64,000 nt of DNA from Halobacteriovoraceae bacterium. Lineage in GTDB: Bacteria; Bdellovibrionota; Bacteriovoracia; Bacteriovoracales; Bacteriovoracaceae. Position 1 is the first letter of the stretch, and the number at the start of each line of letters is the position of its first letter. Under the pieces are notes generated by a model. It did no database searches. It was not told the origin of the DNA and was given only the letters and a program-made list of their open reading frames with translations. The stretch lies in the NCBI GenBank assembly GCA_963719505.1, contig CAVRCF010000002.1, positions 320,001 to 384,000 on the forward strand, given 5' to 3'. The position numbers and the translations under genes were made by a program. Positions 748 to 46,041 of this stretch are shown one piece after another.

Positions 748-3700
748 ATGATAAATAAAGTAATAGAATTCTCAGTTAAAAGTAGGATGTTTGTTTTTAT
801 AATGACACTGCTACTTATTGTTTTAGGATATCAATCTTTTCAAACACTCTCTATTGATGCGGTACCTGATATCACAAACACTCAGGTACAGATCAATACC
901 CCAGTCAAAGGACTTGTTCCAGAAGAGATAGAGCGAATGGTGACATTCCCTATCGAATACTCAATGAATGGTATTCCTGGTGTTTTAACGATTCGGTCTA
1001 TTTCAAGGTTTGGTATTTCTCAAGTGACGATTATTTTTAAAGAGGATATTGCAATCCTTACTGCTCGCCAGCTTGTCAGTGAAAAACTGCAAAACCTCGA
1101 ACTTCCTCGGGGTGTGACTCCTGAGATGGGACCTATTAGCACTGGACTTGGCGAGATTTTTCATTACTCAATTTCAGCAAAAAAGGTAGAAGTCGATCCC
1201 GATAAACGATTAGTTCAGTTGATGGAGCTTAGGTCCTTACAAGACTGGTTTATAAAGCCAAGACTTCTTACGGTGAAAGGTGTAACAGAAGTCAACACTA
1301 TCGGTGGCTACGAAAAACAGTTCTTTATTCAACCAAATATTAAAAAAATGACTAATTTGGGGGTTCATTTCGATGACATAGAAAATGCTATAGAACAAAC
1401 TAATTTGAATGTTGGAGGCGGATATATACAGCAAACCGGTGAGCAACTCCTCATTCGAGGGGTAGGGCTATTAAAGAACTTTAGTGATATTGAAAATGTC
1501 GTTGTCAAAAGGCTTTCGGATTATAAAGTTATAAAAATCAAAGATATCGCTAAGGTAAAATTCGATAAGCAAATAAGAACTGGAGCCGCAACTGTAAATG
1601 GCGAGGAAAGTATTATAGGTACAGCCTTTATGCTTTTGGGTGAAAATAGTCGTACCGTTTCAAATGACGTTAACGAAAAACTAAAAGAGATTGGAAAGGA
1701 CTTGCCCTCTTGGGTTGAACTTAATGTTCTTTATAATCGATCTGATATGGTTGATGCTACTTTAGGAACAGTTCAACACAATCTTTTTATGGGAGCAGGT
1801 CTGGTTATTCTATTTCTACTCTTACTTGTTGGAAATCTTAGGGCTGCCATCATAACGTCGATTATAATACCAATTTCACTTCTGATAACATTCATTTTGA
1901 TGAAGTGGCAAAACGTATCAGGTAACCTTATGAGTCTAGGCGCTTTGGACTTTGGGATCATTGTTGATGGAGCTGTTATTGTTATTGAGAACTGTGTTCA
2001 TAAACTACAAAAAGAAGGCAAGCGAGCGGGAAGAGAATTAACAAGGCATGAGGTTAAAAAATATGTTACTGAAGCGGCAATTGAGATTCGATCTGCTGCA
2101 GGCTTTGGTGAACTTATTGTTATTATCGTTTTTGTTCCCCTCTTCGCTCTCACAGGTGTAGAAGGGAAAATGTTCGGACCTATGGCCCAGACATTTATTA
2201 TGGCTTTATGTTCAGCTCTTATCCTTTCTTTTACTCTCGTACCTGCTTTAGCTGCTACTTTTTTGAGTGGGAAGACAAGAGATAAAAAACCATATTTTAT
2301 GAATTTAGCACAGAAAGTCTTTTCTCCAGTTTTGGCAAAAGCCTTGGCCTTCAAAAGGGTTGTTTTAGGAATTGGCGTTGCTTCTATCATTGGTGGAGTC
2401 GTTCTTTTTTGTCAAATGGGATCTGAGTTTATTCCGCAATTAGATGAAGGAGATTTTGCCCTTCAATTCATAAGACCAGCTAATGTGAGCACTGAAAATT
2501 CTGTTAAGCTACAAAAGCTCTCGGAGAAAATTATCAGAGAATTTCCTCAAGTAAAAAATGTGTTTGCCAGAACTGGTGCCGCAGAGGTCGCAACAGATCC
2601 CATGGGAGTTAATATTTCAGACTCTTATGTTATGTTGTTCCCAAAAAAGAATTGGCCGGTTGATGAAAGAATCAAAACAAAAAAAGACTTAATAAAAGCT
2701 ATAAAAGAACGGATAGAGCTTCATGTTCCAGCACAAGTGCTTATGGTATCCCAACCTGTAGAACTTCGATTTAACGAACTTTTAGAGGGGACACGTGCCG
2801 ATGTATCCGTAAAAATATTTGGAGATGATCTGGATCAAATAATAGCCTACTCTAAACAAGTTGCAAATATTGTCGCTCAGATAGATGGAGCTGGAGAAGT
2901 TGAGTCAGAGTCTAAAGGTAAGTCTCCATTGCTTCAGTATACTCCAAAAATTGAAGAACTAGCTCAACTTGGTGTTACCGCAAGACCTGTCTTGGATGCT
3001 ATTAGTACGGCTATTGGGGGAAAAGAGATAGGGCATGTTTATGATGGTGTAAGAAGTTTTCCTATTGTCACAAGGCTATCTGAAGAAGAGAGAAAAGATG
3101 TCTTTACTATTAGTAAACTGCCAGTCGGAATTTCAAATGGATACACTGTTCCTATTGAACAAGTTGCTGACATAAGCTTTGTTGAAACCTTCACTGCGGT
3201 TGCTAGAGAAAATTCACAAAGACGAGTTGCCGTTTTAATAAATCCTGAAACAAGAGATATTGAGTCATTCGTCAACAAAGCAAAAGAGAAAGTTGAAAGC
3301 ACAATTAAGTTTCCTGAAGGTTATTATATTGAGTGGGGTGGAAGTTTTAAAAATCTTCAAAGTGCAAAAGAGAGATTATTTATCCTTGTGCCACTTGCTA
3401 TGCTTGTGATCATTGGGATGCTTTATGCTGCTTTCAAAAACTTTGCACAAGTCTTACTTATTTTTGCTTGTGCTCCTATGGCATTAATTGGAGGCGTCGT
3501 CTCTTTAAATCTTTTTGATATGCCATTTAGTATTTCTGCTGGAGTTGGGTTTATTGCTCTTTCCGGTATTAGTATTTTAAATGGGGTCGTACTCGTGACC
3601 TATTTTAACAGACTGATTGGAGATGGTAAGTCTCCAGATGATGTTGTTAAGGAGGGCGCCATGTCAAGATTAAGACCAGTTCTTATGACAGCACTCACGG

Positions 3701-3885
3701 ATATATTTGGTTTTCTTCCCATGATGTTTTCTTCAGGACTTGGTGCTGAGGTTCAAAAGCCTCTGGCAACGGTAGTTGTTGGTGGTATCTTTACCGCAAC
3801 AATTCTGACTTTAATTGTTATACCTAGTTTATATCGATTATTTATAAAATATATGCAACCTGATCTTGAGGAGATTAAAGAATGA
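748..3885 (+). CDS. czcA: CusA/CzcA family heavy-metal efflux RND transporter
   Basis: 1045 aa with IDAVPDITNTQVQ, GPISTGLGEI, SLGALDFGIIVDGAV and RLRPVLMTAL motifs. Confidence 0.95.
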   Translation: MINKVIEFSVKSRMFVFIMTLLLIVLGYQSFQTLSIDAVPDITNTQVQINTPVKGLVPEEIERMVTFPIEYSMNGIPGVLTIRSISRFGISQVTIIFKEDIAILTARQLVSEKLQNLELPRGVTPEMGPISTGLGEIFHYSISAKKVEVDPDKRLVQLMELRSLQDWFIKPRLLTVKGVTEVNTIGGYEKQFFIQPNIKKMTNLGVHFDDIENAIEQTNLNVGGGYIQQTGEQLLIRGVGLLKNFSDIENVVVKRLSDYKVIKIKDIAKVKFDKQIRTGAATVNGEESIIGTAFMLLGENSRTVSNDVNEKLKEIGKDLPSWVELNVLYNRSDMVDATLGTVQHNLFMGAGLVILFLLLLVGNLRAAIITSIIIPISLLITFILMKWQNVSGNLMSLGALDFGIIVDGAVIVIENCVHKLQKEGKRAGRELTRHEVKKYVTEAAIEIRSAAGFGELIVIIVFVPLFALTGVEGKMFGPMAQTFIMALCSALILSFTLVPALAATFLSGKTRDKKPYFMNLAQKVFSPVLAKALAFKRVVLGIGVASIIGGVVLFCQMGSEFIPQLDEGDFALQFIRPANVSTENSVKLQKLSEKIIREFPQVKNVFARTGAAEVATDPMGVNISDSYVMLFPKKNWPVDERIKTKKDLIKAIKERIELHVPAQVLMVSQPVELRFNELLEGTRADVSVKIFGDDLDQIIAYSKQVANIVAQIDGAGEVESESKGKSPLLQYTPKIEELAQLGVTARPVLDAISTAIGGKEIGHVYDGVRSFPIVTRLSEEERKDVFTISKLPVGISNGYTVPIEQVADISFVETFTAVARENSQRRVAVLINPETRDIESFVNKAKEKVESTIKFPEGYYIEWGGSFKNLQSAKERLFILVPLAMLVIIGMLYAAFKNFAQVLLIFACAPMALIGGVVSLNLFDMPFSISAGVGFIALSGISILNGVVLVTYFNRLIGDGKSPDDVVKEGAMSRLRPVLMTALTDIFGFLPMMFSSGLGAEVQKPLATVVVGGIFTATILTLIVIPSLYRLFIKYMQPDLEEIKE

Positions 3886-4211
3886 AAAACTTAGTATTAT
3901 TAATAGTTGGTATAATCTTAGGTGTCTCCTGCGCTCATCACCATAAAGAAGGAGCGCATCATCACCACAAGGCTTGCAAAGAAAGTTGTAAAGTGAACCA
4001 TGCAAAGGTTGATATGTTTAGTCGGTATTGCGCCCAGTCTATTTTAGAGGGGAAGTTGCACGTCAAAGGTGAGGAAGAGCTAAGTCTTAAACACGGAGGG
4101 CAAATCTATTATTTTTCAACTGAAGAAAAACGAGATAAATTTAAGGAAAACTTAGAATTGAATGCTATAAATGCTACAAAAATTTGGCATGAGGGCTCAG
4201 CGAGAAGGTAA
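3882..4211 (+). CDS. His-rich YHS-domain lipoprotein
   Basis: Lipobox GVSC, His tracts, and the YHS-like motif 'HGGQIYYFSTEEKRDKF'. ATGA overlap with czcA. Confidence 0.7.
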   Translation: MKNLVLLIVGIILGVSCAHHHKEGAHHHHKACKESCKVNHAKVDMFSRYCAQSILEGKLHVKGEEELSLKHGGQIYYFSTEEKRDKFKENLELNAINATKIWHEGSARR

Positions 4212-4214
4212 AAA

Positions 4215-5090
4215 ATGGGACATGACCATTCACATCATCATCATCAAGATTCAAAAAATATACTGGTGGCTTTTGCTTTAAATGCCACATTTTCAATTAT
4301 TGAATTGATTGGTGGATATTTAACCAATAGTGTCGCGATATATTCTGACGCTCTTCATGATTTTGGAGACAGTCTCTCTCTTTTGTTCGCATACTTTGCT
4401 GAAAAAATGAGTCATAAAAAGCCTGATGACAAATACACTTTCGGATATAGAAGGTTCTCTATTCTTTCAGCGCTTATTAATGGGATCATTTTGTTGGGTG
4501 GAAGTATCTTTGTCATTGTGGAAGCCGTTCAAAGAGTGATGAGTCCGGAGGTTGTGAAACCAGAAGGAATGCTCTGGTTGGCCATTCTTGGTATTGCCGT
4601 CAATGCCATTGCTGCTTATAGAATGTCAAAAAATACAGGGCTTAATACCAGAATGGTAATGTTACATCTTCTTGAAGACCTTTATGGATGGGTCGCGGTA
4701 CTTGGAGTTAGTATTGTTATCATGTATAAGCCATGGTATTTTTTAGACTCTCTTTTATCCATTTTTATCTCAGTTTTTATACTTCGTGGAGTCTATAAAA
4801 ATTTGATAAAGGTTGGAACAATTCTTTTGCAAAGATTCCCTGATGAAATAAAACTTGAATCTATTTTAGAGGAGATCTCACAATTTGAACTTGTTAATGA
4901 TATCCACGCCGTCAAGGGCTGGTCATTAGACAATGAAACGTTCTACCTACGATTTCATGTAAAGGTTCCAGACGATACTGTTATCGGTGTTCTCGATGAT
5001 CTAAAATTGAAAATCAAAAAGGTTTTAGTCTTTCATAGCGTGACGTTTTCAACAATTGAATTTGAAGCCGAGCACTGTGATCTGAAGTAG
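4215..5090 (+). CDS. czcD: Cation diffusion facilitator (CzcD/ZitB-like) transporter
   Basis: His-rich N-terminus, SDALHD, TFGYRR and HLLED motifs, about 6 TM segments. Confidence 0.9.
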   Translation: MGHDHSHHHHQDSKNILVAFALNATFSIIELIGGYLTNSVAIYSDALHDFGDSLSLLFAYFAEKMSHKKPDDKYTFGYRRFSILSALINGIILLGGSIFVIVEAVQRVMSPEVVKPEGMLWLAILGIAVNAIAAYRMSKNTGLNTRMVMLHLLEDLYGWVAVLGVSIVIMYKPWYFLDSLLSIFISVFILRGVYKNLIKVGTILLQRFPDEIKLESILEEISQFELVNDIHAVKGWSLDNETFYLRFHVKVPDDTVIGVLDDLKLKIKKVLVFHSVTFSTIEFEAEHCDLK

Positions 5091-36301: not shown

Positions 36302-37399
36302 GTGAGATCATTTTATATCATTATTATTTTAGTCGTTTGTTCAAAGCTGTATGGGCAAAGCACCATGATCCAAAATAGAGGAAGTCAGTTTAATCCCGCA
36401 ACAGGATTAAATGCGACAATGCTTATGCGAAAATCAGAAAACGATACCGAGCACGATGGCTTTATGCTCCAAGGGGTGGAGTTACAATTCAACTCTGATG
36501 TCGATGCCTACTTTAGGGCCCAAGTGGTTATTGGTGTTCATCCAGAGATTCATGAACATCATGACGAAGAAGAAGAAGAAGAACATGAAGAAGAAGAAGG
36601 TCATAACCAATACGAGATTCACCCCGAAGAGGCTTATGTCGAGACGATTGCAATTCCTTCGGTAACTCTAAAAGCGGGAAAGTTCCTTTCTCAATTTGGA
36701 AAGTATAATGCCATCCATCTTCACGCACTTCCCTTTGTTTATAGAGGAGTGGTTCAAAAAGAAGTTTTTGGAGGTGAGGGCTTTACGGCGCCAGGTGTCT
36801 CAGCTTCTTTTCTCTTACCAATAGGCTGGTATAGCGAGTTATCTCTAGAGGCGATGCAGTCTGACAATGAGACTTTATTTGTAAAATCATCTAATGCCAC
36901 AGTTTACGTCGCTAAAATGAAAAACCTATGGGACTTAAACGACGAGACCACAATTGAGTGGGGTCTGTCTGGACTCAATTACGAAAGAGCAAGTTTTGGA
37001 GATAATGAAAAAGAGACCTCCAAACTTTTAGGAACCGATCTGACAATTAAATGGCGTCCTACCCAAAATGGAAGAAGCTCTTCTGCAATGTGGTCAACAG
37101 AATTTATTCAAAAGCAAAGGTCTGGAACAGTTAATTCTGAAAATGGTGGAATCACATCATTTATTAGGTATCAAATCAAACAAAGATGGTTCACCCAAGC
37201 CCAATATGAATTTTATGGAATTAATAAATCTGATGATGAGGAAAGTATACAGGCTTACACAGGGCTTATTGGATACATTCCCAGTGAGTTTTCGGCCATT
37301 AGATTACAGTTCGATAAAATAAGTTCACACGAAGATGACTCGAGAATATCTCTTCAGTTTAATATGAGTATTGGTGCCCATCCTGCACATAATTATTAA
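36302..37399 (+). CDS. Zinc-regulated outer-membrane porin/receptor-like protein
   Basis: His/Glu-rich loop, EEAY and LKAGKF motifs, C-terminal IGAHPAHNY. Confidence 0.75.
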   Translation: MRSFYIIIILVVCSKLYGQSTMIQNRGSQFNPATGLNATMLMRKSENDTEHDGFMLQGVELQFNSDVDAYFRAQVVIGVHPEIHEHHDEEEEEEHEEEEGHNQYEIHPEEAYVETIAIPSVTLKAGKFLSQFGKYNAIHLHALPFVYRGVVQKEVFGGEGFTAPGVSASFLLPIGWYSELSLEAMQSDNETLFVKSSNATVYVAKMKNLWDLNDETTIEWGLSGLNYERASFGDNEKETSKLLGTDLTIKWRPTQNGRSSSAMWSTEFIQKQRSGTVNSENGGITSFIRYQIKQRWFTQAQYEFYGINKSDDEESIQAYTGLIGYIPSEFSAIRLQFDKISSHEDDSRISLQFNMSIGAHPAHNY

Positions 37400-37409
37400 G
37401 GGGGAGAGA

Positions 37410-38282
37410 ATGAAAATTTTATTGTTTCTCATCACACTAAACTGCTTTGCAACCTTAAAAGTCGTGACAACAACTTCAAATCTTAAAGCGCTCACTAAGA
37501 CAATTGGTGGAGATAAGGTTGAGGTTCTGGGGCTTTGTAAAGGGGCTCAGGACCCTCACTTCTTAGAAGCAAAACCTAGCTATATTTTTAAACTATCCAA
37601 AGCTGATCTGTTGGTCAGTGTTGGCGCTGACTTAGAGATAGGGTGGCTTCCTCTTATTATCCAAGGCAGTAGGCAGCCTAAATTGAGAGTTGGGCAAAAA
37701 AATCATTTAGTCGCAGCTAATTCCGTAGAGCTTCTTGAGAAGATTGAGGGAAGAGTCTCAAGGGCGCAAGGTGATGTTCATCCCAATGGAAATCCTCACT
37801 TTATGCTCTCTCCTATGGAGTCAATTAACGTGGGAGAGGCTTTGGCGAATAAGCTCTCAACTGTCGATCCCCAAAATGCAACATTTTATAAAGAGAACCT
37901 TGAAGCTTATAGACAATCGATTCTAAAGAAGATGATTGAGTGGAAAAAAAGGGTTCCTAAAAACCAAAAGGTGGTCACTTATCATAGAACGCTATCTTAC
38001 TTTTATAGGGACTTTGAGATAGAGAATATTGATGTTCTTGAGCCAAAGCCTGGTGTTCCACCAAGTGCCTCTCATATTATGAACCTCATAAAGAAAATGA
38101 AAAAAATGAAGACGAATATTATCATTGTAGAAAACTACTTTAACGATGCAGTCGCGAAGAGAATTCAAAGAGAAATACCTAATATCAAAGTTAGGACTGT
38201 TCCTGTAGCCGTGCAAGGCACAGAAGGTATAGAGAACCTTATTGATCTTTACTCATTCTTAGTTAAAAGCGTGGAGAATTAA
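37410..38282 (+). CDS. Zn/Mn ABC transporter substrate-binding protein (ZnuA/TroA family)
   Basis: DPHF, GNPHF, TYH and EPKPGVPP motifs. ATG 37410 follows the SD ggggag. Confidence 0.9.
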   Translation: MKILLFLITLNCFATLKVVTTTSNLKALTKTIGGDKVEVLGLCKGAQDPHFLEAKPSYIFKLSKADLLVSVGADLEIGWLPLIIQGSRQPKLRVGQKNHLVAANSVELLEKIEGRVSRAQGDVHPNGNPHFMLSPMESINVGEALANKLSTVDPQNATFYKENLEAYRQSILKKMIEWKKRVPKNQKVVTYHRTLSYFYRDFEIENIDVLEPKPGVPPSASHIMNLIKKMKKMKTNIIIVENYFNDAVAKRIQREIPNIKVRTVPVAVQGTEGIENLIDLYSFLVKSVEN

Positions 38283-38283
38283 A

Positions 38284-39090
38284 ATGGAAGTCATAAACTT
38301 TCTTCTTGCTCCCTTTTTAATGTGTCTCGTTTTAGTTGGAATTCACTGCTACTTAGGTTTACACGTCTTAAGAAGAGAGGTGATCTTTATTGATCTCTCT
38401 TTAGCTCAAGTGGCAAGCCTTGGAAGTACAGTTGCTCTTTTATTTCATGTTGAGCATCACTCCAGTGGATCCTATTTTCTCTCACTTGGATTTACACTTT
38501 TAGCTGCGCTCTACTTTGCTTGGGCGAAAAAATTTGAGAAGAAAATTTCTCAAGAGGTTTTAATCGCTCTCGTTTATGCTTTTTCATCGGCAGCAGTTGT
38601 CCTTGTGGTCAATATGCTCGCCCACGGAGCTGAACATATTAAAGAAATACTCGTTGGTAAGATTCTTTGGGTTAGTCTTGACGAGGTTAAAGAGACCGCA
38701 CTTATCTATCTAGGCGTCGCTATTGTTCATTACCTTTTTAGAAAGCAGATGTTTAAAGCGACCAACGGTGAAGTTGAGAATCATAAGTTTTGGTGGGATT
38801 TTTTGTTCTATGCCCTTTTTGGAGTGGTTATAACTTCTTCGGTAGGCATTGCTGGAATTCTTCTTGTCTTCTCTTTTCTTGTTGTTCCGGCGTTGATTAG
38901 TATGCAGTTGGTGAAGAGTATCAAAAGCCAGCTTCTTTTGGGTTGGCTAATAGGCAGTCTCTTGTCTTTGGTGGGAATGTTCTTGAGCTATCGTTATGAT
39001 TTACCCTCAGGGGCCATCATCGTCGTGGTTTTCACCTTGGTGCCTTTAGTTGGGTTGATTTTAATGGGGATGATAAAGTTGAGAAAATGA
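38284..39090 (+). CDS. Zn/Mn ABC transporter permease (ZnuB family)
   Basis: LGLHVL…FIDLSLAQ, GILLVFSFLVVPA and DLPSGA motifs. Confidence 0.88.
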   Translation: MEVINFLLAPFLMCLVLVGIHCYLGLHVLRREVIFIDLSLAQVASLGSTVALLFHVEHHSSGSYFLSLGFTLLAALYFAWAKKFEKKISQEVLIALVYAFSSAAVVLVVNMLAHGAEHIKEILVGKILWVSLDEVKETALIYLGVAIVHYLFRKQMFKATNGEVENHKFWWDFLFYALFGVVITSSVGIAGILLVFSFLVVPALISMQLVKSIKSQLLLGWLIGSLLSLVGMFLSYRYDLPSGAIIVVVFTLVPLVGLILMGMIKLRK

Positions 39091-39217
39091 TCGAAACTTT
39101 AAATGTTGAATGTTCAACCGAGGTTGAATCTTTATGACAAAATTTCCTTTAGCTTTTTCTTCAAAAACCATCGTTCTTTTTTTGTCACGAATCTTCATTT
39201 TGAAGTTTCGATCATTT
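39085..39217. repeat. Long imperfect inverted repeat (~130 nt stem-loop)
   Basis: aaatgatcgaaactttaaatg (39085-39105) pairs with cattttgaagtttcgatcattt (39196-39217). Inner pair tgacaaaa/ttttgtca. Confidence 0.7.
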
Positions 39218-39240
39218 CCTATACCTAGGATATAGGAAAT
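39214..39240. terminator. Hairpin between convergent genes, possible bidirectional terminator
   Basis: Perfect 10-bp stem atttcctata-cctagga-tataggaaat. Confidence 0.55.
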
Positions 39241-39294
39241 TTAGATTTTTATCTTCTAAGACTTTATAAGCTTAGGTAAACAAATGAATACAAT

Positions 39295-41280
39295 TTAAGA
39301 GTTTGTATTAAAATCAATCTGAACTTGCTTAAAACGTCCGTCTCCAACAGATGTACTTTTAAAATCACCCTCTTTTTCTACGTATTGATGAATGATTCTT
39401 CTCTCTGCTGGATTGAGTTTTTTCGTTAGCACAGCTGCTTTTTTCTCTTTCACTTCGCTTATCACAGTCTGAGCGATTTTATGAAGTTGAGCTTCCATAT
39501 TTGGGTTTTTCTCTCTTCTATTATTTGTTGGACGTTTACGGTCAGATTTTGGTTTGTCACCATCTTCTGTTCTCCAAGAGATTCTTGTGTTGCTGGCCAT
39601 CGAAACTTTATTGCGAAGATACTGCATTGATACTTCTTTGATCGCGTTGTGAAGAGCAAACTTTCCTTTGGCCAACTCTTTAGCATCTGTTCCCGAGAAG
39701 GTTACCGAAACATTTGGTTCTCTATAGCTCACATCAACAAAGACTCTCAGGTCCATTTTCTTAAAAAGATTTATAAGAAAAGGAAGAAGAATTTTTCTGT
39801 AGATGGGTTGAACTTTAAATTTGTACTGAGTCTTGCTAGGTCCAAAGATAATGAATTTCTTTTTCCCTTTGCCAACAACTTCGTGCTCAAGAATTGATTC
39901 TTCATTAATATAAAAGTATTCAAGAGCTTTCTCTTTTGCTTCTTCTAAGGAATAAGTCGAAACATTGAAAAATCTTTCATAGATCTTAACTTCTTTCGCT
40001 GGAGAATCTTCTCTTTTTGCTTTGGTTTTCGTTTTTTCAGTTCTAGGTTTTTTATCCATACTTTTTTCTCTCGCTTTATCGTTTGTCTTTTTATTCTCAT
40101 AAGGTTTGAGAGTTTTACTATCTATTCTTGGACGTTTTACAATATCAGTTGCAAAGTCTTCATCTTCTATATCTGCTTTTGGTATTTGCATACCGATGTA
40201 CTGGGTAATGGCTTCAAAGTTTTCTGAGTCATCATAACCACAAAAACCGACAGCTAGTCCCGACTTTCCAGCACGCCCTGTTCGCCCGATTCTGTGGACA
40301 TAGTTTGGTGCCTCATGCGGCATGTCCCAGTTGACGACCAAGTTAACATCTTTAATATCTAGGCCTCTCGCTGCAACATCAGTACAGACAAGAATATTTA
40401 TTTTTTTATCTCTAAAGTCTTGAAGAAGACGAGTTCTTTTACTTTGAGGAAGTCGTCCAGAGATTGGCTCGACTTTAAAGTCCATCTGTCCCAACCAAAT
40501 CGCAACAAGTGAAGTCATATACTGAGTATTACAGAAAATAATAGCGTAGTTGTCTTCATTTTTACGAAGAAGGTTAACCAAATAGGGCATCTTTTCTTCT
40601 TCACTTATCATCGCCACTTTTTGATTGATATTATCCACTGTCAAACTGTCTTCATTGAGTTTGACTTCCTCTGGAAGAGAGCCAAACTTATAAGCCGTTC
40701 TAAAAATTTCTTGATTATTTGTCGCCGAAACCATGATGAGTTGTCGTGACTCTTTTACTGATCTAAGAACAAATTCATTGTCTTTATTAAAGCCCATCTC
40801 AAAGAGTCGATCCGCTTCATCAAAGATGACGCAATTACAGTTTTTCGCTTTTATAACTTTTTGTTTGATGAGGTCACATATTCGCCCTGGAGTTCCAACG
40901 ATAATGCGGGCCCCTTTTTCGATAAATTCTTTTTGTTTTTCTGCACTCTCTCCACCGATGACACTAACAGAGTGAATACCTAGAGGTTCACCAAAGTCTG
41001 AAAAGACTTTGTGAGTTTGCTGTGCAAGTTCACGTGTAGGACTTAAGACAATATAAATATCGTCATTATTTTTCCTAAGAATTTGTTCAAGAACTGGAAT
41101 TGCAAAGGCTCCCGTTTTCCCACTACCTGTTTCTGCTTGTGCAAAAATATCTTTATCAGCAAGAATAATAGGTATGGTTAATTCTTGAATAGGAGAGGCG
41201 TTTTCAAAACCTAATGCTTTTAGGCTTCCAATAAGTTTTTCGTTTAAGTTAAATTCAGTAAAGGCTGCTGATGTTTCGAT
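39295..41280 (-). CDS. DEAD-box RNA helicase fused to Jag/EloR (Jag_N, KH-like, R3H) domains
   Basis: Q motif, AETGSGKT, PTRELA, TPGR, DEAD, SAT, ARGLD, HRIGRTGR; then Jag_N 'SLEEAKEKAL…EVVGKGKKKFIIFG' and R3H 'LNPAERRIIH'. The ORF track starts at 41376; a start at ATC 41280 is inferred. Confidence 0.88.
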   Translation of the reverse strand: METSAAFTEFNLNEKLIGSLKALGFENASPIQELTIPIILADKDIFAQAETGSGKTGAFAIPVLEQILRKNNDDIYIVLSPTRELAQQTHKVFSDFGEPLGIHSVSVIGGESAEKQKEFIEKGARIIVGTPGRICDLIKQKVIKAKNCNCVIFDEADRLFEMGFNKDNEFVLRSVKESRQLIMVSATNNQEIFRTAYKFGSLPEEVKLNEDSLTVDNINQKVAMISEEEKMPYLVNLLRKNEDNYAIIFCNTQYMTSLVAIWLGQMDFKVEPISGRLPQSKRTRLLQDFRDKKINILVCTDVAARGLDIKDVNLVVNWDMPHEAPNYVHRIGRTGRAGKSGLAVGFCGYDDSENFEAITQYIGMQIPKADIEDEDFATDIVKRPRIDSKTLKPYENKKTNDKAREKSMDKKPRTEKTKTKAKREDSPAKEVKIYERFFNVSTYSLEEAKEKALEYFYINEESILEHEVVGKGKKKFIIFGPSKTQYKFKVQPIYRKILLPFLINLFKKMDLRVFVDVSYREPNVSVTFSGTDAKELAKGKFALHNAIKEVSMQYLRNKVSMASNTRISWRTEDGDKPKSDRKRPTNNRREKNPNMEAQLHKIAQTVISEVKEKKAAVLTKKLNPAERRIIHQYVEKEGDFKSTSVGDGRFKQVQIDFNTNS

Positions 41281-41424
41281 AGTTCTCTCGTTTGTGTTAA
41301 TTATTAAAGGGTTACAGTAGCAAAAACTGAGTGATTTAGACAATGTTTTCTTCCATTGATTTTTGCTTCGCAACATCTAACCTTTGGACTAATCAAAGCG
41401 TACTTTTAAAGCTATTCTCAATGA

Positions 41425-43185
41425 ATGTACAAATTAAGGGGCTATCAAAAAGATGCCGTGAGTCAGACAATTAAATACTTTCAAAAGAAAAGACAACCGG
41501 CTGTCATTGTTTTGCCAACAGGAGCTGGTAAGAGTTTAGTTATCGCAGAGCTTGCTAAGCTTGCTTTGGGACGAGTGCTTGTTTTGGCCCACGTCAAAGA
41601 GCTGGTAGAGCAAAACCATGCAAAATTTGAAAGCTATGGATTGAGTGCTGGTATTTATTCAGCAGGGCTGAATAAAAAAGAGAGCTCGCATAAGGTTATC
41701 TTTGGCAGTATTCAATCTGTTGCCCGAGCGCAGGAGGACTTTTTCGAAAACTTCAGTCTGCTCGTTATTGATGAGTGCCATCGGGTTGGCCTAGAGCCAG
41801 ACACGCAGTATCGATCAGTGATTGATAAACTTAAAAAGCTAAACCCAGAACTTTGTGTTCTCGGACTCACCGCAACACCATATCGTTTAGGTCTTGGTTG
41901 GATTTTTAATTTTGATGCTGAGGGCTCAACTTTGACAAACGAGTCGCGCTTTTTTAGCCAGTGCATTTTTGAACTTCCCCTGGAATACATGATTGAAAAT
42001 AAATTTCTCACTCCACCAATCAAAGTTGATATCCCGGTGACTTGTTATGACTTTTCAGAACTTGTGCAAGATGGTCAAAAGTTTAAAATTAAAGACATTG
42101 AGAGACTTCTCAAGGAGCAAAGAAGTTTAACTCCTCTTATCGTGAAAAATATTATCGACATAACGACTGTCTATAAGAGGCAAGGAGTGATGATCTTTTG
42201 CTCAACGATCAAGCACGCGAAAGAAATTGTTGATTGTCTTCCTAAAGGTGAGGCAAAACTTGTTATAGGAGATACAGATTCTAGTGAGAGGTATCAGATT
42301 ATAGAGAGCTTCAAGCAAAGGCAATTTAAATACCTGGTGAATGTGTCTGTTCTCACAACAGGTTTTGATGCCCCTCATGTCGACGTCATAGCCATCTTGC
42401 GTCCAACGGAATCGGTGAGTTTGTATCAGCAGATTATTGGTCGAGGCCTAAGATTGTCAGCTTCGAAGAAGGACTGCTATGTTCTCGACTATGCAGGAAT
42501 GGGACATAATATCTATAGACCAACTGTGAAAGATAAAAGACCCAAACCAGAATCAGTCAGAGTGCGAGTTAAATGTCCTCAGTGTTGTTTTATAAATACT
42601 TTTTGGGGAATTAAAAACCTTGATGGAGAAGTCGTTGAACACTTTGGAAGAACTTGTCGAGGGGGAACTAAAGATGCTCTGAGCTTCGAAGTTAAGCCTT
42701 GTGGGTACCGTTTTCGTTTTAAGATTTGTGATAAGTGTTTTCATCAAAATGATATGATGGCCAAAGAGTGTGAAAGTTGCCATCATGAACTCATCGACTC
42801 AGATGCCAAACTCAAACAAGCAAAACTTTCTAAAGACTCCCACGTCTTAACACCGGAGACATTTATTTTTGATCAAGGGGTGGATGATGAGGGGAGTGAG
42901 TACCTCGAAATTAGATACTACGATTTTAATGGTGATTTTTTAAAAGAAACTCACTACCTTCAAGAAGAAGTAGACAGGCAAAGGTTTGAGATTAATTTTT
43001 TGCGCTCACACAAAAAAATCCCTGAATTTAAGTTTCATTTTTTAAATCCTCAAGACGTCATAAAGAAACAAGGTCTTTTTCGACAGCCCTCTTTTATTAT
43101 TGGGCGAAAGAAGGGGAAAGAGTGGAGAATTACAGAAAAGATTTTTGCAGAAGGACTAGGTAAGATTAAGCCCCAATTTGAATAA
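41425..43185 (+). CDS. radD: DNA repair SF2 helicase RadD (YejH)
   Basis: LPTGAGKS, DECH, GLTATP, LTTGFDAP and QIIGRGLR motifs; C-terminal Cys zinc finger. Confidence 0.9.
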   Translation: MYKLRGYQKDAVSQTIKYFQKKRQPAVIVLPTGAGKSLVIAELAKLALGRVLVLAHVKELVEQNHAKFESYGLSAGIYSAGLNKKESSHKVIFGSIQSVARAQEDFFENFSLLVIDECHRVGLEPDTQYRSVIDKLKKLNPELCVLGLTATPYRLGLGWIFNFDAEGSTLTNESRFFSQCIFELPLEYMIENKFLTPPIKVDIPVTCYDFSELVQDGQKFKIKDIERLLKEQRSLTPLIVKNIIDITTVYKRQGVMIFCSTIKHAKEIVDCLPKGEAKLVIGDTDSSERYQIIESFKQRQFKYLVNVSVLTTGFDAPHVDVIAILRPTESVSLYQQIIGRGLRLSASKKDCYVLDYAGMGHNIYRPTVKDKRPKPESVRVRVKCPQCCFINTFWGIKNLDGEVVEHFGRTCRGGTKDALSFEVKPCGYRFRFKICDKCFHQNDMMAKECESCHHELIDSDAKLKQAKLSKDSHVLTPETFIFDQGVDDEGSEYLEIRYYDFNGDFLKETHYLQEEVDRQRFEINFLRSHKKIPEFKFHFLNPQDVIKKQGLFRQPSFIIGRKKGKEWRITEKIFAEGLGKIKPQFE

Positions 43186-43245: not shown

Positions 43246-46041
43246 ATGATAAAACTACTTTTAATTTTCTTAGTGAGCTTAAGCTCTTACGGTCAAGCTA
43301 TTGACTACTCTCAAAGCTCTTCCGATATATCCTGGAAAACAATTTCAAATGACTTTGTAAAACTCATCTATCCAGATTACCTAAAGGATGATTCCGTTTA
43401 TCTGGCTAACCTTATTGAACATTACTCAAAAGATGTTGGTCAAAGCTACCAAATAGAGAGGCCAGAACAGATTACTGTTATTATTAGACCAGAGACTTCT
43501 CAGCCAAATGGATTTGTGACTCTTGGGCCAAGGCGAAGTGAGTGGTTTTCAAGTTCAATGTACTCGCCATTTCTCGGTGGACTCGAATGGTATCAAGCTC
43601 TTTCCATTCACGAATATCGACATGTTCTCCAATACGACTATTCGAGAAAAGGTATTATTAAATTTTTAGATCTTGCCCTAGGGGACAGTGGCTATAGTGC
43701 GGGGTTATTCCTAGGACTTCCATCTTGGTTTTTTGAAGGTGATGCTGTTTGGGCCGAGACAAAGTATACCGATGCAGGACGAGGAAGGTCTCCTCGATTT
43801 TTAGCGCGTTTAAAATCATTGATTAAAGGTCATGATATTCCAAGCTATGACGAATTTCTTGGAGGCAGTTTTAATAGACCGCTTCCTAATCACTACGTCT
43901 ACGGCTATATCTTAGTCTCAAGTGCCACAAAGAGGTTTGGTGATGACTTTTGGCAAAAGGTTATCAAGTACGTTGCCGATTTTCCTCATCCCTATAGAAT
44001 CTACAGCGGAATAGAGAAATTTTCTGGGATGGAATTTGAAGACTTTTACAATGAGACAATGAATGAGCTCAAAGATGAGTGGCAAGGTTCTCAAAAGTCA
44101 GAAGATAAGAAGTATTCAGATATAAAGTTTCCCACCATGATTGATGGAGAGTTGATTTCTGTTGTTTATGATCTTGATCATTATTGGAGCCTTTACAGAG
44201 GAGACAAAAAATTAACTGAAATCCCTTTTTCAAATGATTTAACCCGAATGAGCTTCTCAAAAAAGAATGCCGTTTATAATCAGTATCTGCCTTCTCCAAG
44301 ATTTGACTATAAAGAGAGTTCAGATCTTATCTTAGTCGATCTAAAAAGCGCAGAGACAAAAAAAATCACTGATGGCTTAAGACTTTATAATCCTTCTTTT
44401 AATCGATCTGGAGATAAAATTCTAGCAACTTTATTTGATGAAGAAAATAACTGGTCGATTGCCGAATTTAATCTCGAAGGTGAGAGGACTAAAAAGTGGT
44501 TTTTTAAAGATTTAAAAATTGCAGAGTCTCACTATATTGGAGATGAGTCGGCCGTCGCTGTTGTGATTAATAAAATTGGTGAAAAAAGTATTGTCAGATT
44601 TGACTTAAACTCTAAAAAGACAAATCTAGAAACACTTCTTCCATTTTCTCGAAACACAATTTTCAATCTTAATATTACCAAAGAAGAGGATATTTTGTTT
44701 GAAGCCCAAAAAAATGGTGTTGTTGATATCTTTAGATTTTCCCCCTCTGGCGTCCTTTCTCAGTGTACACAAGCAAGTATTATGGCGACAACGCCCTCTT
44801 CAGATGGAGAATTCCTTTATTTTAGTGACCAAGTTGAAAATGGATCTGTGGTGGGAAAGACTCTTCTTTCAAATTGTAAAGAAGTGAGTGTTAATGAAAT
44901 TATAGATTATAAATATTTAGGAAAGAATAGTTCAGATGCTTACAATGACTTCAAGCTAGAGAAGTTTCCAAATTTTGCAGATCTTGTCACCCAAGACGAT
45001 GATCGATATAAAGCTGAAGACTACGGCCATATTGACTCTAGACTTTTCGTTCCTCACTCTTGGAACTTTTTTGGGGGGAATGGTTTCCAGCTTTCAACTC
45101 AAACAGATAATTACCTAAGAACTTTATCTCTTGGAGCCACTATTGGAGAGGATGGATCTGAAAACGTTAATTACTCCGAGTTTACTTTGGCCTTTAAAAA
45201 ATACTATCCTATCTTCGCTCTTTCTGCAGGTGCTCGAAATAGAAGTCTCAACCCAATAGGTTTTTCGAATTCTTTGTCATGGGAGGAGAAGTCTGCACAG
45301 CTCAATATAGTCATTCCATATATCTACTCTTTTGGACTTTTTAACTTTGGCTCTCAACTGGTCCTAAGCGGTGGGTATCTCGATGCTTCGGACTATAAGT
45401 ATAATGATGAAAGTATTGAAAGAGAGTCAAGCTACTTTTACACGAGCTCTGTGACTGCTTCATTTAAGCTGTCTAAGAGTTTAAATGCTCGTTCTATTCA
45501 ATCGCCACTGGAAGTTGGATACACGGTTAAATACGACGACCTTGACAGTCAAAAAGTAGAGGCGCACTCATCTTATAGACTCTTTCAAAACCTTGATGTA
45601 AAGGTGCCGGGATTTTTTCTCCATGATGGTTTCAAGTTAGAGTTACAAGAAGAGAGACATAAAGAGGATAGAGCTGCTTACCTCATTTCACCTTCTACAA
45701 CAGATCCAACCGAGAATATTTTTTCAAGAGGTTATGGATATGAAAGTTTCGCTAAGTATTCTAAAGCTTCTTTGAATTATGTTTTTACACTTGGATATCC
45801 AGATTACAATCTTTGGAATTTCGCTTACACAAAAAGGGTTGTGACAAATCTCTTTTTTGATTCAACAAGACTCGATCTTATTGAGCGGGAAAAAACCTTA
45901 AACAGCTTGGGCTCAGAGGTAGAGTTTGAGACTATGTTTTTTAGATTAATTCAGCTCAATTGGGGAATAAGATACTCTTATCGACTCAGAGATAGTGAAA
46001 GCGTCGGTGAGCTCTATTTTGCTAGTGATCTCTCTTTTTAA
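43246..46041 (+). CDS. Outer-membrane protein: gluzincin-like domain, beta-propeller and C-terminal beta-barrel
   Basis: Signal peptide, HEYRH…WFFEGDA, TolB-like repeats (LYNPSF, TPSSDG), barrel strands, terminal Phe. Confidence 0.7.
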   Translation: MIKLLLIFLVSLSSYGQAIDYSQSSSDISWKTISNDFVKLIYPDYLKDDSVYLANLIEHYSKDVGQSYQIERPEQITVIIRPETSQPNGFVTLGPRRSEWFSSSMYSPFLGGLEWYQALSIHEYRHVLQYDYSRKGIIKFLDLALGDSGYSAGLFLGLPSWFFEGDAVWAETKYTDAGRGRSPRFLARLKSLIKGHDIPSYDEFLGGSFNRPLPNHYVYGYILVSSATKRFGDDFWQKVIKYVADFPHPYRIYSGIEKFSGMEFEDFYNETMNELKDEWQGSQKSEDKKYSDIKFPTMIDGELISVVYDLDHYWSLYRGDKKLTEIPFSNDLTRMSFSKKNAVYNQYLPSPRFDYKESSDLILVDLKSAETKKITDGLRLYNPSFNRSGDKILATLFDEENNWSIAEFNLEGERTKKWFFKDLKIAESHYIGDESAVAVVINKIGEKSIVRFDLNSKKTNLETLLPFSRNTIFNLNITKEEDILFEAQKNGVVDIFRFSPSGVLSQCTQASIMATTPSSDGEFLYFSDQVENGSVVGKTLLSNCKEVSVNEIIDYKYLGKNSSDAYNDFKLEKFPNFADLVTQDDDRYKAEDYGHIDSRLFVPHSWNFFGGNGFQLSTQTDNYLRTLSLGATIGEDGSENVNYSEFTLAFKKYYPIFALSAGARNRSLNPIGFSNSLSWEEKSAQLNIVIPYIYSFGLFNFGSQLVLSGGYLDASDYKYNDESIERESSYFYTSSVTASFKLSKSLNARSIQSPLEVGYTVKYDDLDSQKVEAHSSYRLFQNLDVKVPGFFLHDGFKLELQEERHKEDRAAYLISPSTTDPTENIFSRGYGYESFAKYSKASLNYVFTLGYPDYNLWNFAYTKRVVTNLFFDSTRLDLIEREKTLNSLGSEVEFETMFFRLIQLNWGIRYSYRLRDSESVGELYFASDLSF

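Follow-up and report, generated by a model that had tools for sequence, protein, structure and literature searches.

The 64,000-nucleotide window analysed in this study (positions 320,001 to 384,000 of contig CAVRCF010000002.1 from the Halobacteriovoraceae bacterium assembly GCA_963719505.1) contains a gene whose product combines, in a single uninterrupted reading frame of 693 residues, the core of a DEAD-box RNA helicase with a diverged yet complete copy of the RNA-binding protein KhpB, also named Jag or EloR. In the genome of this organism, the fusion replaces the separate jag gene, which was lost from its slot between yidC and mnmE. The product is most likely a DEAD-box ATPase whose own KhpB part serves as the adaptor that tethers it to RNA, with the separately encoded KhpA probably acting as its partner, and we assign a probability of about 60% to the proposal that it is an active RNA helicase which employs the KhpB module as substrate-recruiting appendage by the mechanism outlined below. 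DEAD-box helicases, KhpB proteins and the attachment of an RNA-binding appendage to a helicase core are all known, and what appears unreported is the presence of a complete KhpB module on a helicase, where it takes the place of jag. A literature search, with supplements and subscription papers outside its scope, found no published description of a helicase of this kind, in line with the first-pass annotation of the window, whose author knew of no characterised protein with this architecture.

The C-terminal tail is a Jag_N-KH-R3H unit with an intact RxxxH motif and a degenerate GXXG loop. Its R3H domain is recognised by Pfam (residues 630-687, 41.8 bits compared to a cut-off of 26.8), with R659, R660 and H663 being invariant in an alignment of 18 homologues (A1), thus leaving RxxxH intact. 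The Pfam score of Jag_N (residues 476-512, 20.1 bits, or 22.1 for the tail alone) is below the cut-off of 25, the model KH_KhpA-B does not match the protein and the NCBIfam model Jag_EloR gives 43.4 bits for the tail compared to a cut-off of 145. Similarly, among 63 tails from a sample of 121 Bacteriovoracaceae genomes (assigned to the family by their record titles, 91 of them of high quality), Pfam at an expectation value E≤0.01 detects R3H in 63, Jag_N in 16 and KH_KhpA-B in 5. Since single-sequence library scores were weak for two of the three domains, we built a profile from 63 homologous tails (alignment A2), and with Pfam being weak or silent for both, the assignments of Jag_N and KH rest on profile and structure comparisons. 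The profile matches the Jag protein of Clostridium symbiosum (PDB 3gku_A) with E 8.7e-27, where profile positions 10-224 are aligned to residues 6-209 of the chain. The match spans the entire three-domain protein and consequently covers Jag_N from chain residue 6. The KhpB of Thermus thermophilus (9lrg) is matched with E 7.8e-14, and within the phylum, 18 stand-alone Jags from outside the family are matched by hhalign over KH and R3H with a probability of 99.9 and E 1.8e-32.

These assignments are reflected in an AlphaFold2 model of residues 460-693, predicted with a mean local distance difference test score (pLDDT) of 91.6, whose top Foldseek matches are 3gku, 9lri/9lrg (T. thermophilus KhpB) and 2pt7_G (Helicobacter pylori HP1451). 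In a VIA-align superposition with 3gku_A (Z 11.8), 201 of 206 residues are aligned, covering 8-233 of the model and 1-208 of the chain, at a root mean square deviation (rmsd) of 16.9, which is large because the domain orientations differ. Taken individually, the KH domain superimposes on the KH domain of ribosomal protein S3 with an rmsd of 2.0 over 74 residues (Z about 8 to 8.5) and the R3H domain on that of PARN with Z 7.8-8.0. The position of the GXXG motif, located opposite to the GKRG loop of 3gku, reads K570-G571-K572-F573, and a glycine is not conserved at this site in the family consensus, be it in either alignment or in the match to 3gku. The succession of DEAD-box core, basic linker, Jag_N, KH and R3H, which had been read from the sequence in the first-pass annotation together with a suspected degeneration of the GXXG loop, is thus borne out by Pfam, profile match, model, Foldseek and VIA-align, and the proposed profile test of the C-terminal region has returned both an R3H score above the Pfam cut-off and the match of the whole module to 3gku_A. 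Jag_N is a feature of one of two KhpB groups. Among the stand-alone Jags of the phylum, it is kept in one family (L116-L121), and most of the proteins of other families (L125-L135) lack it and start instead with a short MxxFxKLFGG motif; the KH loops of the latter are partly degenerate already (e.g. EKEGQ).

The N-terminal part contains a helicase core whose Pfam scores (DEAD 154.3 bits, cut-off 26; Helicase_C 113.4 bits, cut-off 23.5) are far above threshold. All nine DEAD-box motifs, as defined by consensus patterns, were located between residues 56 and 368. In domain 1, these comprise the Q motif (56-64), motif I (AQAETGSGKT, 79-88), Ia (PTRELA), Ib (TPGR), II (DEAD, 186-189) and III (SAT), and in domain 2 the motifs IV (IIFCNT), V (TDVAARGLD) and VI (HRIGRTGR). 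With many of its residues invariant across the 18 homologues of alignment A1, the core appears catalytically competent. It is followed by a conserved extension, which contains the pattern DFATDI..RPRID.KTL and is modelled as a strand (369-379) and a helix (381-394), with pLDDT values of 75-86 in blocks up to residue 420 and of 71 for residues 421-430. Core and extension together end around residue 428. None of the NCBIfam equivalogs considered (CshA, DbpA, RhlB, RhlE, SrmB and DeaD) reaches its cut-off, the best being CshA (360.6 bits, cut-off 646), followed by DbpA (329.6, 524) and RhlB (312.9, 588), and, as judged from its sequence, the core is a distinct subfamily. As Jag_EloR, the helicase equivalog models and Pfam KH_KhpA-B all remain below their cut-offs, the fusion protein is not filed as equivalog of any named protein. 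The AlphaFold model of the full-length protein (pLDDT 76, predicted template modelling score 0.42) served to define domain limits. Values of pLDDT below 50 are confined to residues 1-27, 429-466 and 606-624 and to short loops of the core (243-248, 367-370), and the stretch connecting core and tail is strongly basic, with 19 lysines and arginines and 10 acidic residues among the 54 residues between 417 and 470.

In the bacteria where they have been investigated, KhpA and KhpB are emerging as global RNA-binding proteins in the absence of Hfq and ProQ, although their mode of action is unclear (10.64898/2026.10.12.757534, PMC12408800). Hfq was found in none of the 121 family genomes and ProQ was not found in the genome of the organism itself; the latter encodes CsrA (G000:C1:257718-257873). 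The KH domain of KhpB is described as a docking site for KhpA, which interacts via helix α3, with L239 of EloR contacting I61 of KhpA in vivo, and the KH domain of Streptococcus pneumoniae KhpB binds KhpA strongly (10.1101/435529). The T. thermophilus protein dimerises via α1 and α3 and does not require its GXXG loop for binding RNA, which is normal in the mutant G83D (PMC12408800). In Campylobacter jejuni KhpB, where GKEA replaces GXXG, RNA is bound by R3H and the working GXXG is supplied by KhpA, whereas Jag-N is required for regulation but not for RNA binding (10.64898/2026.10.12.757534). Both proteins are precedents for a KhpB that binds RNA by R3H and not by its KH domain.

The organism encodes a stand-alone KhpA of 79 residues within rpsP-khpA-rimM, which contains a canonical GKQG loop and I61. 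In a predicted complex of this protein with the KH domain of the fusion (residues 519-609), the interaction prediction score from aligned errors (ipSAE) is 0.78 (0.78, 0.75 and 0.79 in individual runs) compared to 0.00 for the best control, a value that may also reflect known KH dimers; the mark applied to this score is reached by 116 of 157 solved complexes and by 2 of 215 mismatched pairs. The runs reproduce one another's contacts with an agreement of at least 98%, and the partner is modelled with a pLDDT of 87 or higher. The predicted interface involves α1 (533-543) and the α2/α3 stretch (567-589) of the KH domain, facing residues 3-17 and 46-69 of KhpA with I61 at its center, and it coincides with the mapped contact between EloR L239 and KhpA I61 (10.1101/435529) and with the α1/α3 dimer face of T. 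thermophilus KhpB (PMC12408800). The evidence from these models thus points more towards a KH domain that docks KhpA than towards a tethering of the protein to the membrane by Jag_N.

The binding and unwinding of RNA by DEAD-box cores shows no preference for sequence, and it is usually their appendages that confer specificity. In the proposed mechanism, single-stranded RNA would be held by R3H and the two basic disordered linkers, whereas the KH domain, which has lost its GXXG RNA loop, would primarily offer a protein-protein face formed by α1 and α3 for the docking of KhpA, a separately encoded partner that has kept its canonical GKQG loop. Jag_N probably recruits a further partner. The tethered RecA core would then spend ATP to open or remodel duplexes or ribonucleoproteins in the vicinity, on RNAs selected by KhpA and KhpB, and the protein could in this way provide this family, where no Hfq was found, with an ATP-driven form of the KhpA/KhpB RNA chaperone or decay adaptor. 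Its targets may lie in the turnover of sRNA and mRNA or in the maturation of rRNA and tRNA. There are hints that KhpA/KhpB-type proteins work together with helicases, since in Mycobacterium tuberculosis the Jag-like Rv3920c and the KH-domain protein Rv2908c are predicted accessory components of a degradosome that contains RhlE, PNPase, RNase E and RNase J (PMC6582357), a link that is summed up in a study on Fusobacterium nucleatum as KhpA and KhpB binding the degradosome.

Several observations weigh against this proposal. KhpA was found in 115 of the 121 family genomes (70-95% identity in full-length matches), including those without KhpB or R3H, and it is conserved equally well in genomes that lack the fusion or any R3H. 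With R3H being present in only 71 genomes, KhpA is independent of the fusion and their co-occurrence lends no support to a pairing of both proteins. The predicted complex is scored by the model's own confidence based on self-made alignments and, since related complexes have been modelled or solved, the high score may stem from likeness alone. The fusion is absent from 50 of the 121 genomes, where it was either lost or never present, and it is thus dispensable in the family. Finally, the genomic context does not point to a pathway, since none of the neighbours of the gene in the window is found in more than 3 of 75 homologous loci and the commonest cluster of neighbours is present in 12, from which no operon partner has emerged.

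It is also conceivable that the same face of the KH domain could equally mediate homodimerisation. A protein whose KH domain mainly homodimerises via α1 and α3 would be a two-headed helicase with two R3H sites that operates independently of KhpA. The helicases CshA and Hera provide precedents for dimeric DEAD-box proteins with C-terminal dimerisation domains, and the retention of KhpA irrespective of the fusion would be compatible with such an arrangement, as would the crystal structure of T. thermophilus KhpB, which is a homodimer mediated by the KH domain whose composite RNA site requires dimerisation (PMC12408800). Yet, the heterodimer with KhpA is predicted at high confidence with clean controls and the strong binding of KhpA by the KH domain of S. 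pneumoniae KhpB (10.1101/435529) argues in the same direction. Although both modes of interaction are not mutually exclusive, we consider it unlikely that homodimerisation prevails.

The first-pass annotation had instead envisaged that a helicase tethered by Jag_N to a membrane complex could remodel or localise specific mRNAs or sRNAs. Spelled out further, Jag_N would anchor the helicase to a complex in the membrane or envelope, in a similar manner as EloR is linked to MltG, which would confine the remodelling of RNA to the membrane or the division site. The underlying statement that in Streptococcus Jag_N contacts membrane and cell-elongation proteins is found in print: in S. pneumoniae, localisation to midcell depends on the Jag domain, whose binding partner is the intracellular domain of MltG (10.1101/2020.12.18.423453). 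Also the maintenance of Jag_N as well-folded domain in the model of the tail and the finding that in C. jejuni regulation, but not the binding of RNA, depends on Jag-N (10.64898/2026.10.12.757534) would be in line with such a role. However, the gene has left the neighbourhood of yidC and its context indicates no membrane partner. In the homologue of MltG/YceG, the YceG domain almost fills the frame of 345 residues, which makes a long cytoplasmic docking domain unlikely and leans weakly against the pneumococcal mode of interaction. An anchoring by Jag_N appears even less probable than a preferential homodimerisation, and recruitment of RNA by the KhpB module together with KhpA is the reading that we prefer.

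The relationship of the fusion to the separate jag gene is illustrated by the genes surrounding the origin of replication. In 20 of 20 loci sampled from the other families of the phylum, a stand-alone jag is located between yidC and mnmE, which agrees with its initial description as a gene normally found separately near yidC. In the organism investigated here, the operon reads rpmH-rnpA-yidC-mnmE-mnmG-rsmG-parA-parB without jag, leaving a gap of 8 nucleotides between yidC and mnmE, and the proposed search for a separate jag beside yidC has thus found none in this genome, which is 83.5% complete and whose only R3H match is the fusion gene. The evolution of the tail was followed in a quickly built maximum-likelihood tree, rooted with an outgroup and containing one long branch (L136). 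It comprises 85 Jag modules, of which 63 are fused, 4 stand alone in the same family and 18 come from other families. The 67 modules of the family separate from the 18 Jags of other families with a support of 89 in the Shimodaira-Hasegawa-like approximate likelihood ratio test, and 61 of the 63 fused tails form a single clade (support 94). The remaining two group with two stand-alone Jags (support 95), which requires at least two changes of state, either a fusion followed by a fission or two fusions. The two stand-alone proteins in this group (L138, at 3400..4389 on the plus strand, and L139, from genomes G417 and G435), which are placed with the fused tails L105 and L107, carry a long and very basic N-terminal tract that resembles the linker of the helicase, and they may be products of a fission of the fusion gene.

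A word-indexed search with the tail has identified 29 clusters including the query, which contain R3H in all but one case and at least Helicase_C in all; several of them are short at the N-terminus, and those that bear a name in the source databases are entered only as generic 'superfamily II DNA/RNA helicase' or as 'RhlE'. A single tail sequence used as query did not detect any relative in genome contigs, whereas relatives were found in an alignment-based scan and in the search of genomes of the phylum. The former, covering one genome per species, has retrieved 79 loci from named public contigs, and in 74 of these the match includes the tail, reaching query residue 625 or further. The labels of the loci are Bacteriovoracaceae, Halobacteriovoraceae, Halobacteriovorax, Bacteriovorax, Bdellovibrionales or Oligoflexia, apart from a few odd ones such as those of two metagenome-assembled genomes, 'Sulfitobacter sp.' and 'Bdellovibrio sp.'. 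In a sample of 401 genomes of the phylum, where a search for the architecture had been suggested, matches of the tail in long frames are found solely in the organism's own family, and in other families the matching frames of about 180-380 residues are separate Jag proteins. In a larger search, the tail profile was compared to 1.84 billion representatives, with the best 150 of 9336 matches being inspected. Among these 150, all matches of at least 587 residues rank in the top group (E≤1e-32); three scanned members of this long top group (P0036, P0049 and P0054) are helicase fusions and other long matches that were scanned (P0155, P0107 and P0123) are Jags with long linkers.

Within the sample of 121 family genomes, R3H occurs at 72 places, with one of the 71 positive genomes containing two, and at 63 of these places the orthologue of the fusion is a frame of 634-782 residues. 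An orthologous core (45-82% identity, E≤1e-97) is present in 65 genomes, all of which also contain R3H. A cross-tabulation that was counted from the two result tables has thus found no genome with a core but without R3H, 6 with R3H but without a core, and 50 with neither, in which the best listed DEAD-box matches are 33-39% identical. With 65 genomes containing both parts and none the core alone, the core subfamily and its KhpB tail are gained and lost as a unit. Concerning the six genomes that only contain R3H, the gene is cut by the end of a contig in G198 and decayed in G339, and G261, G417, G435 and G418 encode diverged stand-alone Jags located away from yidC. In the decayed copy (G339:C16:1375649-1376310), the tail is interrupted by three in-frame stops and a search for an orthologous core found none, and in G432 (G432:C50:1781-3818) core and tail reside in adjacent but different frames of 429 and 320 residues; both copies look like they are decaying or mis-assembled.

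The latter two cases would favor the assumption that no fusion protein is made and that a recent frameshift, or an error in sequencing or assembly, has linked neighbouring helicase and jag genes. The probability of this assumption is negligible in light of the uninterrupted frame that recurs between independent assemblies (with 63 long frames among the family genomes and 74 of 79 public loci that extend through the tail), the in-frame linker that is maintained throughout despite a tail identity as low as about 23-30%, and the fact that no orthologue of the core without a tail was seen in the 121 genomes. The fusion is therefore no assembly error.

The described features place the protein in relation to several known systems. 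With stand-alone KhpB proteins (3GKU, 9LRG/9LRI), it shares the same three domains in the same order, an intact RxxxH motif and homology at the level of profile and fold, and the predicted docking of KhpA would use the same α1/α3 face that was mapped experimentally in these proteins. In contrast to a stand-alone KhpB of about 200 residues, the tail is covalently joined to the C-terminus of a helicase and encoded outside of the yidC-mnmE slot, and it deviates from standard KhpB in its KGKF sequence at the GXXG position, its low Jag_EloR score and a KH domain that is not seen by Pfam KH_KhpA-B. Degenerate KH loops are common to the fusion, to the stand-alone Jags of this phylum and, in the published account, to C. 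jejuni KhpB.

The tethering of a RecA core to a C-terminal RNA-binding domain via a flexible basic linker is a logic shared with the helicases DbpA/YxiN, Hera, CsdA/DeaD, CshA and RhlE. The appendages of these proteins are RNA recognition motif-like or adopt other folds, and to our knowledge none of them is a KhpB module or a docking site for a second RNA-binding protein. Among eukaryotic helicases, YTHDC2 combines R3H with a DExH core and IGHMBP2 (SMUBP-2) a superfamily 1 helicase with R3H, the latter of which matches the tail profile with an E of only 0.93. As in the fusion, a KH domain is joined to the helicase core in DDX43 and DDX53, where it sets substrate preference, and in DDX43 it was described to contribute to specificity and processivity (PMC11261784). 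However, the KH domain of DDX43 is N-terminal, of type I and contains a working GXXG, unlike the degenerate type II domain at the C-terminus of the fusion. The eukaryotic helicases with KH or R3H domains are independent inventions, none of which contains the Jag_N-KH-R3H triad. A further parallel is the degradosome of M. tuberculosis, where KhpA/KhpB-type proteins are linked to RhlE. There, the association is non-covalent and between products of separate genes, with jag still residing close to the origin and with RhlE as helicase instead of the subfamily of the fusion, which would make such an association covalent.

In a gene-fusion or Rosetta stone argument, the conserved covalent linkage predicts a functional partnership between KhpA/KhpB and a helicase, which was previously only hinted at by pull-downs of the M. 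tuberculosis degradosome (PMC6582357). A generalisation of this relationship, which we find tentative and hold to be possible rather than probable, would define KhpB as adaptor that hands RNAs selected by KhpA and KhpB to a DEAD-box ATPase, be it a degradosome or a chaperone helicase, with the Bacteriovoracaceae, where no Hfq was found, having hard-wired this interaction in an RNA matchmaker of three parts that is driven by ATP and formed by the helicase-KhpB protein and KhpA. If correct, recruitment of a helicase would be part of the so far unexplained way in which KhpA and KhpB regulate in Gram-positive bacteria, Fusobacterium, Campylobacter and mycobacteria. The combination of a KH domain without GXXG and an intact R3H fits the division of labour proposed for C. 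jejuni. With this module, the range of appendages that target DEAD-box proteins to RNA gains a new kind, and the fusion offers a simple system for dissecting the role of each KhpB domain, in experiments which appear feasible since two of its carriers, Bacteriovorax sp. BSW11_IV and Halobacteriovorax sp. CON-3, are isolates by their record titles and thus available as named cultured strains.

The gene is encoded on the minus strand of the window, which corrects its initial entry, and terminates with a stop codon at 39295-39297 (Table 1). The first-pass annotation had assigned it to 39295..41280, whose lower end holds. The upper end does not, since position 41280 belongs to the ATC codon of I33, where conservation among homologues sets in, and not to a start codon. 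The frame is opened by an ATG at 41376, which is preceded in the DNA by AAAGG, and the true start could be this codon or a TTG downstream (codon 2 or 12). All three peptides that had originally been quoted are contained in the translation: STYSLEEAKEKALEYF... from Jag_N corresponds to residues 474-512, ELAKGKFA from the KH domain to 567-574 and LNPAERRIIH...STSVGDG from R3H to 654-681. A scan of positions 39000-41600 for promoters and terminators has found no excess over shuffled sequence (5 compared to 5.7 and 1 compared to 1.3, respectively), a result that carries no information on the transcription unit.

Table 1. Features of the helicase-KhpB fusion gene (positions in the window) and the separately encoded KhpA.
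Feature	Position	Strand	Basis
Whole gene, DEAD-box helicase and KhpB/Jag	39295..41376	-	One open frame, 693 aa, stop codon included
N-terminal residues 1-32	41281..41376	-	Unconserved in alignment A1; disordered in model, pLDDT <50 for 1-27
RecA-like domain 1 (Pfam DEAD, residues 61-223)	40708..41196	-	Pfam E 3e-45 and motif scan
RecA-like domain 2 (Pfam Helicase_C, residues 261-370)	40267..40596	-	Pfam E 8e-33 and motif scan
Conserved extension at the C-terminal end of the core, specific to the family, residues 371-428	40093..40266	-	Alignment A1 and full-length model
Basic disordered linker between core and tail, residues 429-466	39979..40092	-	pLDDT <50; variable length and sequence among homologues
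Jag_N domain, residues 470-522	39811..39969	-	Sub-threshold Pfam; profile match to 3gku; structural alignment
Type II KH domain, residues 523-606	39559..39810	-	hhalign, VIA-align, complex prediction
Basic disordered linker between KH and R3H, residues 607-623	39508..39558	-	pLDDT <50 for 606-624; variable in alignment
R3H domain and preceding helix, residues 624-690	39307..39507	-	Pfam 41.8 bits; RxxxH = R659...H663
KhpA	G000:C5:644189-644425 (L002 1480..1719)	-	Between rpsP and rimM

The window also contains several genes in the vicinity of the fusion. Divergently oriented, with the two start codons being 48 nucleotides apart, a plus-strand gene (41425..43185) encodes a superfamily 2 helicase of 586 residues (ResIII and Helicase_C) with many paired cysteines in its C-terminal half. 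The pairing of both genes is not conserved, as a homologue of this helicase is found near the fusion in 3 of 75 loci. Further along the same strand, an open frame of 931 residues (43246..46041) starts with a signal peptide-like N-terminus and matches no Pfam family at E≤1e-4. On the other side of the fusion gene, the plus-strand region 36302..39090 encodes a protein of 365 residues without Pfam match that contains a His/Glu-rich tract and whose gene is immediately followed by znuA (37371..38282) and then by an ABC-3 permease (38284..39090), both on the plus strand. This protein may be a metal-uptake accessory or outer-membrane component.

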